From contig DASSMK010000346.1 in NCBI GenBank assembly GCA_035688915.1, positions 25,389 through 89,388 of the forward strand: a stretch of DNA of 64,000 nt, in the 5' to 3' direction. Every line of letters begins with the position of its first letter. Positions within the stretch are counted from its first letter, which is position 1. The notes beneath the pieces are model-generated. The model saw only the letters and a list, made by a program, of their open reading frames with translations, searched no databases and had not been told where the DNA came from. Of this stretch, positions 45,020 to 48,946 are shown one piece after another. Source of the stretch: Thermoanaerobaculia bacterium. Lineage in GTDB: Bacteria > Acidobacteriota > Thermoanaerobaculia > Gp7-AA8. The position numbers and the translations under genes were made by a program.

Positions 45020-48000
45020 ATGGCCAACGAGTTGAACCTCAGCTTTCCGAGTCCGACCGAGGTAATGATCACGCTGAACGGCAGCGTGGCTACCCGTGCG
45101 CTACCGTTTGCGATTCCGCTCACGGACGCCGATTACGCTGACATCCGGTGGTATGTCGAGACGTACGGTGCGCATTCGATCGGTGATCCAGACGATACCG
45201 AAGCACTCCGCATTGCGCAGCAACTCTCCATCTGGGGACGTGCTCTGTTCAACTCCGTATTCAACGACACATCAGCCCTCCGGCGGTACTTCGCATTTCT
45301 GCAGGTGGAAAGGCACGGACGATTACTGACCGTCGCTGCGGACGACCCGTCAATTCTTGCCTTACCGTGGGAACTACTGCACGACCCCTCGAGGAACGGT
45401 GGATTCCTGTTCCTCGAGAACCCGCGCATCAGCATCCGTCGGCGCGTGCTCGGCAGCGACGATGGACGCTTACCGTTCCCAAGTGTCGCCAAGGAGCGGA
45501 TCCGCCTCCTCTTCGTCGTCAGCCGTCCTGGCGATGCGGCGTTCATCGATCCGCGCGCTGACTCCCAATCCGTGCTCGAAGCAGTCGAGCGGCACGCGCC
45601 GGGGCGCGTCACCTGCGAGTTTCTCCTCCCACCGACCTTGGATGCACTGCTGGATCGGCTCGAAGATGGGAGTAAGCCACCAGTCGACATTCTGCACTTC
45701 GATGGTCACGGTGTCTTCGATCGCCGCGGTGATCTGCGCCGCCATGCGTCGCCACTGATGGGAGATCGAATGACGTTCGAGGAAATCGCCGTCCTGAAGG
45801 ACACGCGCGAAAGCACCTCTCCGTCCAGCATAGGCTACCTTCTCTTTGAGGACGCCGACGGACAGGCAGACTTTGTCTCGGCTGCGAAGCTCGGCGCCAA
45901 CCTGCACCGGCACGACGTGCCGCTCGTCGTTCTGTCGGCCTGTCAGTCAGCGGCGTTGCCTGGTCCTGACGCCACAGCGCCTCAGGGCAAAACGTCGGGC
46001 GCAATGGCCAGCGTAGCCGCGCGGCTCACTGGGACCGGCATTCCCTCGGTCATCGCCATGACACATTCCGTTTTGGTGCACACGACCCGCGCGCTTTTCG
46101 GCGAGTTCTACAAGGAACTCGCTCGCGTCAAGGGTGTTGGCGAGTCCCTCGACAACGCTCGTCGCTATCTCGCGAACCATCCACAGAAGTACGACGTGCA
46201 GCGCGGTGCGAGTCGCGTTCCCCTCCTCCTGTACGACTGGTTCGTCCCAGCGCTGTATCAGCAGGGCGACGACGGCCCACTACTAACGCCGTCTACGAGT
46301 ACTCACCCTGCGCTGGACACTCCGCGGGTACGCACGAACGTTCCCCCCACGCCAGAAGGTGGGTTCTTCGGTCGTCGCCGGGATCTTTGGCACATCGAAC
46401 GCTGGTTCGCTGCATCCACGCGGCGCATCACGATTACAGGCTTCGGCGGCCAAGGCAAGACCGCGCTCGCGCATGAAGCAGGTCGCTGGCTACTGCGAAC
46501 CGGGCAGTTCCAGGCTGCCGTCGTGGTCGACTTCTCACGCATTCAGGCCGCCGATGCAATCGCTGTCGCGACGAGCACCATCGGTAACGTCTTGGCCGAA
46601 ACGCTAGTCGATCGCGACGCTGCAGCCGCAGCGCTCACGAGGACGCCCACGCTGCTCATCCTCGACAACCTGGAGATCCTCGGCCAGGAGGCGCTGCACG
46701 CGCTGCTGGAAGCAGCGGCGATTTGGTCGAACGCTGGCAGTTCCCGAGTACTGTGCACGTCGCGTCACCCTACGTTCAATCATCCACAGTATCGAGTGGA
46801 AGGAACGGCCATTCATCGACGGATCGTGCTCGATGGACTCGGCAGCCACTACGATCCGGACGACGCGCTGGAATGGGTCGCAGAATTACTCAAGCTCCCA
46901 CCCGCGCCCGTTCTGCCAGTGCCACGCCGCGAGGCACTCATCACGCTCTTCGACCGCGTGCGCTTCCACCCGCTGTCTGTTCGCGTGCTGACGCAACAGC
47001 TGAAGCGGCGCAGTGCAGCTGACGTCACTGCCCGATTGGAGCAGTTGCTGGCATTCCCGCACGCCGACGCGCACGAGGACGATACACCCGCTACCCTGCT
47101 CGCCTCTCTCGAGCTCTCGCTCGATCAGCTCGATGCCGCCGCGCGCACGTTGGTGCTGAAGCTTGGCGTCATTGAGGGCGGGGCGCTTGAGAGCCGTGCA
47201 CAGGCCGTCGTGGAGCTTCAGAAGGAAGATGCCGTCTGGAACTCGCTCAGACAACAGTTGGAAGACGCGGGACTAGTGACTACGCAACCTGTCCCGGGGG
47301 TGGACGAACCGTTCCTCCGATTCCATCCGACGCTTGCGTCGATGCTGTGGAGTCAATTGAGCGCCTCTGACCGTGCACGCGCGGAGGAGACGCATCGGCA
47401 CACGTACTACCACCTCTCTACCTTCCTCCATGCAGCAGATGGGCGGAATCCGGATGAGACGCGCACGATGGCATGGCTGGAACTACCGAACCTCGTGCGT
47501 GCCGCGTACGCGGACCTCGATGCCGGCCATCCAGGGGCGATCGACTTGGCTGACGATGTGCGGCGCTTCCTTTCGATGTCCGGCCTCCACAAGGCAGCCG
47601 AGCAGCTGACCCTCAGGGCACAGGCCGCGGCCGGCGACGTCGGATCGGAGCCTTGGCTCATCGCGCAAACGGCCCTAGGGGAACAGCTCCTCGACAGCGG
47701 CCGCGTGTCCGAGGCGATAGGAGTCTTCCAAGCGGCGCTTGAGCGTCTGAGGGATCAGCCAATGTCCGATCGCATCACGCTCCTTGTGCGCCTCGGCCGA
47801 TGCGCGGAGGTGGAGGCGAATGGCTCCCTCGCAGAGATGTACGCTCGACAAGCGCTGCACACATTTACGGAACACGAGCAAGACGAGGCCACGGAGTTAC
47901 AGCGCGCATCAGTCCTGTCTGGTCTAGGAGATGCGCTCGCGATGCAGGGCAGTTATGCCGAAGCTCGACGCGCGTACGAGGACGCTCTCGGGATCGCGGA

Positions 48001-48946
48001 GCGTTTCAACGACCTGTCGCACCAGGGACCGCCGCTCTTGCAACTCGGAACCTTGGCGCTGCGGGCGCGTGCCGAAGGGTGGGATGCAGAGGCCGTCCAA
48101 CGCTACCAAGCTGCCATCACGATCTTCGAGCGATTGCGGCAACCTGACAGCGTCGCGACCGCCACCCATCAACTTGGCCGCGTGTTCGAAGAAACGGCTC
48201 AGTGGGATGAAGCCGAGCGCTGTTTCCGCAGGGCTGCAACGATTCGCGAGGAGTTGGGGAACCGCCACGCGGCTGCCTCGACGTGGAATCAGTTGGCGCT
48301 CGTTAACATGAACGCCCATCGGCCAACCGTTGCGGAAGACTGGTTTCGCAAGGCGATCAACGCGGCTCGCGAGTCGAACGATGCCGCCCATTTGGCAGGG
48401 CGGCTGAACAACCTTGCGGGGTTGCTCGTCACCATTCCCGGCCGAGTGCCCGAGGCGCGCGTACTCGTAACGGAAGCACTGGCGATTGCGCAGACCCTGG
48501 ACCCCGCGACAACTCCAGTCTGGCAATTTTATACGACGCTCGCCAAGGTCAACGAGGCGGAAGCGAGGTCGACTCGTGATGCGAGGTTGGCCGCCGAGTT
48601 TCGCGAACATGCGCGCCAGCATCGCGACATGGCGCGCGATACCCGCTTCGGGTTCTCCGGCACCCGCGAACGACTTCGCGAACACGGTGAGACCATTCAT
48701 ACGACGATCGCGGCCATCTCCGACCCTGCGAATCAACTCGCGCTCGAGCGGCATCTAGTAAGGCTCGCGAAAGACCAGTGGAGCGATCTGGTCGCGAGCA
48801 TCCGCGCGATCGTCCACGGACAGAGAGACCCTGACCTGCTCTGCGAGACTCTGGACGTCGAAGACTCAATGATCGTAATGGCCATCCTGAACGGTCTTAA
48901 AGATCGCTCGTCAGTCGCTGATCTCTTTCCCGAGGCGTCGGCGTAA
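45020..48946 (+). CDS. CHAT protease / NB-ARC STAND NTPase / TPR fusion protein (1308 aa)
   Basis: CHAT motifs VDILHFDGHGVF (His) and PLVVLSACQSAA (Cys). NB-ARC motifs ITGFGGQGKTALAHEAGRW (Walker A), PTLLILDNLE (Walker B) and RVLCTSRH. The C-terminal about 500 aa carries TPR-like repeats (SYAEARRAYEDALGIAER...). Confidence 0.8.
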   Translation: MANELNLSFPSPTEVMITLNGSVATRALPFAIPLTDADYADIRWYVETYGAHSIGDPDDTEALRIAQQLSIWGRALFNSVFNDTSALRRYFAFLQVERHGRLLTVAADDPSILALPWELLHDPSRNGGFLFLENPRISIRRRVLGSDDGRLPFPSVAKERIRLLFVVSRPGDAAFIDPRADSQSVLEAVERHAPGRVTCEFLLPPTLDALLDRLEDGSKPPVDILHFDGHGVFDRRGDLRRHASPLMGDRMTFEEIAVLKDTRESTSPSSIGYLLFEDADGQADFVSAAKLGANLHRHDVPLVVLSACQSAALPGPDATAPQGKTSGAMASVAARLTGTGIPSVIAMTHSVLVHTTRALFGEFYKELARVKGVGESLDNARRYLANHPQKYDVQRGASRVPLLLYDWFVPALYQQGDDGPLLTPSTSTHPALDTPRVRTNVPPTPEGGFFGRRRDLWHIERWFAASTRRITITGFGGQGKTALAHEAGRWLLRTGQFQAAVVVDFSRIQAADAIAVATSTIGNVLAETLVDRDAAAAALTRTPTLLILDNLEILGQEALHALLEAAAIWSNAGSSRVLCTSRHPTFNHPQYRVEGTAIHRRIVLDGLGSHYDPDDALEWVAELLKLPPAPVLPVPRREALITLFDRVRFHPLSVRVLTQQLKRRSAADVTARLEQLLAFPHADAHEDDTPATLLASLELSLDQLDAAARTLVLKLGVIEGGALESRAQAVVELQKEDAVWNSLRQQLEDAGLVTTQPVPGVDEPFLRFHPTLASMLWSQLSASDRARAEETHRHTYYHLSTFLHAADGRNPDETRTMAWLELPNLVRAAYADLDAGHPGAIDLADDVRRFLSMSGLHKAAEQLTLRAQAAAGDVGSEPWLIAQTALGEQLLDSGRVSEAIGVFQAALERLRDQPMSDRITLLVRLGRCAEVEANGSLAEMYARQALHTFTEHEQDEATELQRASVLSGLGDALAMQGSYAEARRAYEDALGIAERFNDLSHQGPPLLQLGTLALRARAEGWDAEAVQRYQAAITIFERLRQPDSVATATHQLGRVFEETAQWDEAERCFRRAATIREELGNRHAAASTWNQLALVNMNAHRPTVAEDWFRKAINAARESNDAAHLAGRLNNLAGLLVTIPGRVPEARVLVTEALAIAQTLDPATTPVWQFYTTLAKVNEAEARSTRDARLAAEFREHARQHRDMARDTRFGFSGTRERLREHGETIHTTIAAISDPANQLALERHLVRLAKDQWSDLVASIRAIVHGQRDPDLLCETLDVEDSMIVMAILNGLKDRSSVADLFPEASA

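Follow-up and report, generated by a model that had tools for sequence, protein, structure and literature searches.

Can a single bacterial polypeptide bring together the sensor, the switch and the protease of an apoptosome, and what would such a protein cut? The question is raised by a gene in a stretch of 64,000 nucleotides from a Thermoanaerobaculia bacterium (contig DASSMK010000346.1), which is referred to at its full length as the window. The gene encodes a 1308-residue protein in which a CHAT domain, a predicted caspase-like cysteine protease, is fused to a STAND NTPase and an array of tetratricopeptide repeats (TPRs). The reading we favour, with a probability of about 0.6, is that of a one-polypeptide apoptosome-like sensor-effector, in which a ligand-triggered, NTP-dependent oligomerization switch would activate the protease, most likely in defence, abortive infection or cell suicide.

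The CHAT-STAND-TPR protein and its family

The layout of the gene and its product, with positions in the window and residue numbers in amino acids (aa), is as follows.

45020-48946, + strand: complete CHAT-STAND-TPR open reading frame (ORF) with an ATG start, 1308 aa, from the ORF call
45020-45304, + strand: N-terminal domain (aa 1-95), modelled by AlphaFold2 (AF2) as two beta-hairpins with three helices
45305-46309, + strand: CHAT caspase-fold protease domain (aa ~96-430), placed by Pfam, Foldseek and the catalytic dyad
45707-45709, + strand: codon of the predicted catalytic His230
45941-45943, + strand: codon of the predicted catalytic Cys308
46355-47389, + strand: STAND NTPase module (aa ~446-790), made up of a nucleotide-binding domain (NBD), a helical domain and a winged helix
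46439-46462, + strand: Walker A, G474FGGQGKT481
46652-46675, + strand: Walker B, L548-D-N-L-E552
aa ~791-875: helical arm between the NTPase and the TPRs
47645-48499, + strand: TPR array (aa ~876-1160), matching Pfam TPR_12, TPR_2, TPR_10 and others
48500-48943, + strand: C-terminal helical domain (aa ~1161-1308), conserved, the fastest-evolving part of the protein

The start codon is backed by conservation of the N-terminus from residue 1 in an alignment of 29 full-length homologues, 47-82% identical to the window protein. An identical protein, derived from a metagenome-assembled genome, is on record in NCBI. The N-terminal domain is kept family-wide, and the Pfam search gave no match to it. 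A promoter and terminator scan gave no signal beyond chance.

The CHAT family of Pfam (PF12770) matched aa 96-390 with an E-value of 8.9e-25 and 88.1 bits, against a cutoff of 24. The two catalytic motifs are HFDGHG (aa 226-231) and LSACQS (aa 305-310), and the residues H226-F-D-G-H230-G231 and L305-S-A-C308 are invariant in the 29 aligned homologues. In a wider set of 84 copies from genomes and metagenomes, H230 and C308, together with K480 and H769 of the NTPase, were kept in all 84, and the HFDGHG and LSACQ motifs were likewise invariant at identities to the window protein down to 37%. A reading of this locus from its sequence alone (the sequence-only reading) had proposed an N-terminal CHAT effector with an intact His/Cys dyad, fused to a STAND NTPase and TPRs. 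Loss of the dyad among homologues had been named beforehand as what would refute it, and with a Pfam score of 88 bits and an invariant dyad the proposal is confirmed. The AF2 model of aa 1-450 (pLDDT 76) was matched by Foldseek to SAVED-CHAT (E 4e-8), DdvA, separase, Csx29, gingipain, MALT1 and CED-3, and the modelled domain thus has the caspase/hemoglobinase fold that marks CHAT and clan CD peptidases. The CHAT domain is an intact predicted cysteine protease whose dyad is invariant across the family.

The next domain has the parts of a STAND module, namely a P-loop NBD with Walker A and B motifs, a helical domain and a winged helix. Walker A, Walker B (D549-N-L-E552), R582, H650-P-L652 and F768-H-P-T-L772 are invariant in the 29 homologues and include a sensor-1-like TSR (R582), a GLPL-like FHPLS (H650-P651-L652) and an MHD-like FHPT (H769). 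The AF2 model of aa 437-870 (pLDDT 90, pTM 0.81) superposes on MalT, NRC2 and Apaf-1 across 320-370 residues. Foldseek ranked Apaf-1 first (E 2.8e-12), followed by CED-4, MalT, Roq1, ZAR1, RPP1 and NRC2, with no NACHT or Avs structure in the top 50. When a profile of the NTPase region was compared with PDB sequences, plant NB-ARC proteins were the only matches; the match is weak and spans the GLPL/winged-helix region, where the family's FHPLSIRVL is aligned with ADR1's GLPL motif (E 1.3e-3).

Pfam matched AAA_22, NACHT and NB-ARC to the window NTPase, each under threshold, with NB-ARC (PF00931) at 11-14 bits against a gathering cutoff of 23.5. When 13 homologues were searched one at a time, 12 matched NACHT and 12 matched NB-ARC, all weakly (best E for NB-ARC 5.5e-5). 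The NB-ARC label of the sequence-only reading therefore fails as Pfam membership, the scores for NACHT and NB-ARC being equally low, but it is supported by the fold (Apaf-1, CED-4, plant NB-ARC) and by the weak plant NB-ARC profile match. Assignment to NACHT was rejected: the PF05729 score lies below the gathering score, the closest folds are not NLRP, NLRC or bNACHT proteins, and although the sequence scores are as weak as those for NB-ARC, the fold matches are clearly worse. Thus, by its modelled fold the NTPase is an Apaf-1/NB-ARC-like STAND, of a divergent clade that present Pfam models miss.

Several TPR families exceed the Pfam cutoff over aa ~880-1160, and among PDB sequences the array matches the TPRs of kinesin light chain; it is the presumed ligand sensor. 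TPRs had been claimed for about 500 aa of the protein. They are present, but the Pfam-detectable array covers only ~280 aa, and the rest of the ~520 aa that follow the NTPase includes the helical arm and the C-terminal domain, for which Pfam holds no matching family. Mean pairwise identity falls from the NBD (0.68) through CHAT (0.61) and TPR (0.53) to the last ~150 aa at the C-terminus (0.46), the order to be expected if switch and effector are conserved while the sensor diverges.

The family is large. At E ≤ 1e-30, 779 clusters at 50% identity match the CHAT and NTPase part (aa 1-870), and a scan of one genome per species gave 271 relatives. The best 80 of these 271 are full length and 37-56% identical, and come from Planctomycetota, Acidobacteriota and many filamentous cyanobacteria (Nostoc, Scytonema, Tolypothrix, Fischerella). 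Further hosts among the relatives include Beggiatoaceae, cable bacteria, Entotheonella and Desulfobacterota, and some genomes carry two paralogues. A phage-borne origin was rejected, as no relatives were found in a viral contig collection. In some relatives (e.g. P0089, P0092, P0109) a TIR domain of ~130 aa sits between CHAT and the NTPase; these are predicted to be dual-effector CHAT-TIR-STAND-TPR proteins, which would point to modularity of the effector.

A small partner gene in about half of the loci

In an all-against-all comparison of flanking ORFs, the only neighbour common across the family was a protein of ~140-170 aa, found in 30 of the 58 loci with adequate flanks; flanking genes otherwise vary wholly between loci. 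The sequence-only reading had mentioned neither this conserved neighbour nor the mobile-element context described below. The partner gene is the immediate upstream neighbour in the same orientation, often at a distance of 0-60 bp, or, in a Nostoc clade, the immediate downstream neighbour in convergent orientation. Three examples, which stand for about 40 more loci, are the following.

L002 (Methylomonas sp. UP202), 7111-7554, + strand: partner gene, paired with the CHAT-STAND gene at 8001-11843
L004, 7480-7986, + strand: partner gene
L032, 10265-10702, - strand: partner gene

In the partner, a soluble N-terminal part of ~100 aa and the conserved motif DLCxEGGxLxxQWxKWGDL are accompanied by a single, strongly hydrophobic helix at the C-terminus; its hosts include cyanobacteria, proteobacteria, Planctomycetota and other phyla. 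Four partner proteins searched against Pfam gave no family at E ≤ 5; all database relatives are annotated 'hypothetical', and 120 database relatives have no precomputed Pfam domain. The partner is scattered over the whole tree of the large protein and is thus probably ancestral. By analogy with the systems compared below, it is likely to be the protease substrate or downstream effector in paired loci. In the locus of Candidatus Electronema halotolerans (L061, 5602-9537) we observed a weak match to the partner profile (E 3e-4) inside the CHAT-STAND open frame, which may be a partner-STAND fusion or reflect a lost stop codon. An insertion of ~55 aa in the winged-helix region was considered as a docking site for the partner and rejected, as it showed no correlation with partner presence.

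The window has no copy of this gene, and neither do the locus of the 82%-identical homologue (L001) and L006. The search used a profile hidden Markov model (HMM) run with filters off, at E ≤ 10 and in all six frames for the 64-kb window; tblastn likewise found no hidden copy within the window. The window gene belongs to a partner-less Acidobacteriota clade (the window copy, L001, L015, L011, L036, L013 and L031). Between the window gene and L001 the overall ratio of non-synonymous to synonymous substitution (dN/dS) is 0.19; by domain it is 0.16-0.17 for CHAT and the NTPase, 0.22 for the TPRs and 0.40 for the C-terminal domain. Purifying selection thus acts on this pair, both of them partner-less, and the partner-less gene is not decaying. 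The partner family, which lies outside the window, is a more novel lead than the window gene itself.

An integrative element at tRNA-Pro(GGG)

The CHAT-STAND gene lies at one end of an integrative element, the parts of which are given here.

21494-36278: element backbone common to the window and L001 in the same gene order, from tblastn synteny and Pfam
36400-44900: window-specific cargo block of ~8.5 kb, absent from L001, between the backbone and the CHAT-STAND gene
49011-49178, + strand: non-coding element end of 168 bp, with the direct repeats GAGATGTC (three copies) and GTGTCTAGTT (two copies) and the palindrome GTCTGGAGAC
49180-49224, + strand: core of the right attachment site (attR), identical to the last 45 nt of tRNA-Pro(GGG) at its 3' end, running from the anticodon loop to CCA and lacking the 5' half

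The backbone genes comprise an SSB-like gene, a RepB-primase gene and four more (window 21.5-36.3 kb). In L001 the CHAT-STAND gene directly follows the backbone, and relative to it the window holds two extra cargo blocks, at about 22.8-30.7 kb and 36.4-44.9 kb. The tRNA fragment starts 233 bp past the CHAT-STAND stop codon, and a 35-mer within it recurs in many metagenome contigs as the 3' end of tRNA-Pro(GGG). The 168 bp ahead of the fragment are 86% identical to L001, compared with ~61% at synonymous sites of the gene, and are probably the integrase arm region of attR, as short direct repeats are expected for integrase arm sites. The same junction, with a similar palindrome of the GTCnnGAGAC type, is also found in L001 (at its contig end), L102, L087 and L089; other metagenome contigs with the junction hold partial copies only.

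ARAGORN called no tRNA in the window and Rfam gave no match there. A structured RNA, tmRNA or tRNA gene in the downstream non-coding stretch was considered and rejected (ARAGORN and Rfam negative except for the T-arm; fold z-score -1.5), and the stretch is better explained as an attR arm followed by a tRNA-Pro 3' fragment. The CHAT-STAND gene is therefore the attR-proximal gene, and the last in the cargo, of an element inserted at tRNA-Pro(GGG). The window holds no intact tRNA (attL), and the ORFs scanned included no integrase; the left end of the element may lie beyond the window.

In L102 (6027-11889) a single gene for a 1625-aa STAND NTPase lies between a full tRNA-Pro(GGG) and, 5.8 kb away, a duplicate of its 3' fragment, with no other ORF of at least 150 aa wholly between the two tRNA copies. 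This arrangement indicates that the same attachment hotspot also receives STAND cargo of other kinds. In L114 a comparable pair of copies surrounds a 647-aa ORF.

The other genes of interest in the window are listed in order of position.

6380-8953, - strand: 857-aa protein with NB-ARC (42 bits) and TPRs, further upstream
12528-14879: 783-aa protein with two HATPase domains, adjoining SspBCD
14895-20018, - strand: SspB, SspC and SspD, a complete phosphorothioation module (PADLOC 262, 828 and 374 bits)
26497-30204, - strand: 1235-aa protein with an Mrr nuclease and AAA_22/AAA_16, Avs-like in layout, no PADLOC match
36581-39862, + strand: second, unrelated CHAT protease of 1093 aa, helical N-terminal region and C-terminal CHAT (141 bits)
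39874-40590, + strand: 238-aa protein with no Pfam match, 12 bp after the second CHAT gene
42643-43866: 407-aa membrane-type protein, judged by the appearance of its sequence, in the operon divergent from the CHAT-STAND gene
43873-44325 and 44322-44867, both - strand: two small proteins, from the ORF call
49628-50704, + strand: ATP-grasp gene, convergent with the AAA_16 gene
50708-53197, - strand: 829-aa AAA_16 protein with a weak Avs2 match

SspBCD lies ~25 kb upstream of the CHAT-STAND gene. The 857-aa, 1235-aa and 829-aa proteins make up three more STAND-type proteins within the 64 kb. The cargo block at 22.8-30.7 kb contains a PLD nuclease, a carbamoyltransferase and the Mrr-nuclease-STAND protein. 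That at 36400-44900 contains the TPR-CHAT protein, the 238-aa protein, a DUF7450 protein, a SAF-like protein, the 407-aa membrane-type protein and the two small proteins, weakly paralogous to one another (25% identity, E 1.5e-4). The second CHAT protease and the 238-aa protein may form an independent protease-substrate pair; PADLOC has no match to either. The CHAT-STAND gene thus lies in a defence-rich region on a mobile element.

The sequence-only reading had described the gene as divergent from an operon of membrane and CBS proteins. The divergent arrangement is real, with an intergenic region of 152 bp, and the 407-aa product is membrane-like. The CBS domains were rejected, as the two small proteins matched nothing in Pfam at E ≤ 5 and no CBS sequence in the PDB at E ≤ 10. 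A functional link between this operon and the CHAT-STAND gene was also rejected, since L001, the syntenic locus with the 82%-identical homologue, lacks the block, and none of the ORFs flanking the window gene is shared with another locus. The operon is an unrelated insertion, outside the CHAT-STAND module.

Past the attR, a 27-nt inverted repeat (about 93% identical; 49599-49624 and 53201-53227) lies directly upstream of the starts of both the ATP-grasp and the AAA_16 genes, and the region has a low GC content of 0.56-0.60 (0.62-0.63 at third codon positions). The repeat is read either as a leader common to both genes or as marking the ends of a small cassette.

A proposed apoptosome-like switch and its alternatives

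How the protein would work can be set out from characterized STANDs (Apaf-1, plant resistosomes, Avs3/4/7 and Avs2-trypsin). At rest it would be a closed monomer with NDP bound. A trigger protein, on binding the TPR/C-terminal sensor, would release autoinhibition and open the NTPase, the opened NTPase would oligomerize in an NTP-dependent manner, and the clustered N-terminal CHAT domains would be activated by induced proximity, with site-specific proteolysis as the output. In paired loci, about half of the family, cleavage of the partner would lead to membrane damage or another toxic output, as in the CHAT-gasdermin and Avs2-trypsin-MBL systems. As the window clade lacks an adjacent partner, its protease must find its substrates among host or invader proteins, or in a partner encoded at another site. 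The position of the gene as attR-proximal cargo, the other defence-type genes on the element and SspBCD upstream make defence against phage or mobile elements the most likely role.

The architecture itself is a known design. Koonin and Aravind reportedly described bacterial Apaf-1-like STANDs with caspase-like proteases by comparative genomics in 2002. Such proteins, with the protease N-terminal, are also noted in a survey of 589 STAND clades (10.64898/2026.01.04.697583), and Kaur et al. (2020; PMC7159879) discuss caspase-like peptidases fused to STAND NTPases and repeats. Apaf-1 and CED-4 recruit their protease through a CARD, whereas in the window protein it is fused directly; it is of the CHAT type rather than a C14 caspase, a TPR array and an extra C-terminal domain stand in place of a WD40 sensor, and the NTPase scores under the Pfam NB-ARC threshold.

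The closest parallel for the proposed output is Avs2-trypsin, in which terminase induces tetramerization and the activated protease cleaves the product of the adjacent gene, an MBL nuclease zymogen (10.64898/2026.08.25.746987). The window protein has the tripartite Avs layout, in which a STAND NTPase stands between an N-terminal effector and a TPR sensor, and a ligand-activated N-terminal protease that cuts its neighbour's product is the logic proposed for the partnered family members. However, Avs2-trypsin uses a serine trypsin and an MBL nuclease, whereas the present family has a cysteine CHAT protease and a small partner with a hydrophobic helix, and no partner at the window copy. No Avs model in PADLOC 2.0 matches the window protein, and solved Avs structures lie outside its top fold matches. 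The description of the protein as apoptosis-like or Avs-like with a proteolytic output is therefore still the most reasonable one, to which the defence-island context adds support, but the Avs part of it has no PADLOC match.

CHAT proteases, sometimes fused to TPR or NACHT, also activate adjacent bacterial gasdermins by cleavage (Johnson et al., 10.1101/2021.06.07.447441). The pairing of a CHAT protease with a membrane-acting protein is shared, but the partner here is a protein of ~150 aa whose one hydrophobic helix is C-terminal, and Pfam found no gasdermin among the scanned neighbours of the window gene and family members. The design of the paired loci also matches System 4 of Kaur et al. 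2020 (PMC7159879), in which a 5' gene for the small single-transmembrane (TM) protein EACC1 precedes a 3' gene for an N-terminal caspase-superfamily protein with variable STAND and repeats, and both families are enriched in multicellular bacteria. Compared by description, EACC1 is mainly actinobacterial and has a TM helix with short extensions only, whereas the partner has a ~100-aa soluble part and spans many phyla; in the window a profile search with the family partner (E ≤ 10) found no adjacent 5' small single-TM gene. Craspase (the TPR-CHAT protein Csx29 with Cas7-11) and SAVED-CHAT share the CHAT fold and the principle of a sensor-switched protease that cleaves a defined partner. Their proteases are activated by an RNA-guided complex and a cyclic nucleotide, respectively, whereas that of the window protein would be activated by its fused STAND NTPase, and the domain order is TPR-CHAT in Csx29 but CHAT-NTPase-TPR here. 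The window holds no CRISPR-like tandem array and no Cas family was found among the ORFs scanned, with Cas7-11 not searched for specifically. The CHAT-STAND-TPR family has no PADLOC model of its own.

Several points weigh against a defence sensor-effector. The presumed substrate gene is missing from the window, which makes the output step the weakest inference. The left boundary of the element is not found in the window, so SspBCD is only a putative part of the same element. PADLOC gave no specific match to the protein, only a generic TPR model and two insignificant matches, and several homologues lie among housekeeping genes, outside defence islands. The enrichment in filamentous and multicellular bacteria suits a developmental or kin-recognition role equally well. 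We found no experimental work on the family in the literature, and no trigger, substrate or oligomerization is on record for any member.

An alternative is that the window copy is the orphaned half of an obligate two-gene system, which has lost its partner and is either inert or reliant on a partner elsewhere in the genome. The partner is the family's sole conserved neighbour, spread over the whole tree and probably ancestral, and the profile search found none in 64 kb. Solo and partnered paralogues share the genomes of Nostoc carneum (L032/L066) and Nostoc linckia (L027/L042), so that supply in trans is plausible. We nevertheless consider an orphaned copy unlikely: an entire solo clade from different Acidobacteriota keeps every catalytic residue, the window/L001 pair is under purifying selection, and the gene moves without a partner on a mobile element, in two different element variants. 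It may also be, though less probably than not, that CHAT/Apaf-1-like NTPase/TPR proteins and the ~150-aa partner form a distinct and widespread two-gene cell-suicide system, in which the STAND-activated protease would cut the partner and so free a membrane-active toxin in a gasdermin-independent analogue of pyroptosis, and that partner-less clades evolved a direct proteolytic output that spreads on tRNA-Pro elements.

The phyletic bias towards multicellular hosts raises a different explanation, that the protein governs how multicellular or aggregating bacteria develop, undergo programmed cell death or recognize kin, and is not an anti-phage sensor. CHAT would then process an endogenous regulator, as for HetF in heterocyst differentiation and the CHAT-containing DdvA and Csx29 in sigma-factor signalling. 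Yet Pfam detects no DNA-binding or sigma/anti-sigma domain in the protein, the window copy is integrative-element cargo with defence-type genes nearby, and conflict systems typically show the patchy distribution, multiple paralogues and non-conserved flanks seen in this family. Kaur et al. 2020 (PMC7159879) read the same bias as infection control in multicellular bacteria, and a developmental role appears rather improbable. That CHAT is catalytically silent, serving only as an oligomerization or adaptor module with the true output elsewhere, has a precedent in vWA-MoxR systems, where many caspase domains that occupy the effector position lack catalytic activity (Kaur et al. 2020, PMC7159879). 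It is very hard to reconcile with His230, Cys308 and both surrounding motifs, HFDGHG and LSACQ, being invariant in all 84 sequences at identities down to 37%, and we give it little credence.

Proteins that fuse a caspase-like protease with a STAND and a repeat sensor have for a long time been regarded as predicted counterparts of the apoptosome in bacteria, and those with a CHAT effector have barely been tested. The window gene itself mostly confirms this known design and adds no new principle. The window does show that such genes travel as attachment-site-proximal cargo of tRNA-Pro integrative elements, beside defence-type genes. Given its size, a well-behaved NTPase model, clear catalytic residues and versions with and without the partner, the family offers a convenient system for finding the targets of STAND-activated proteases in bacteria.

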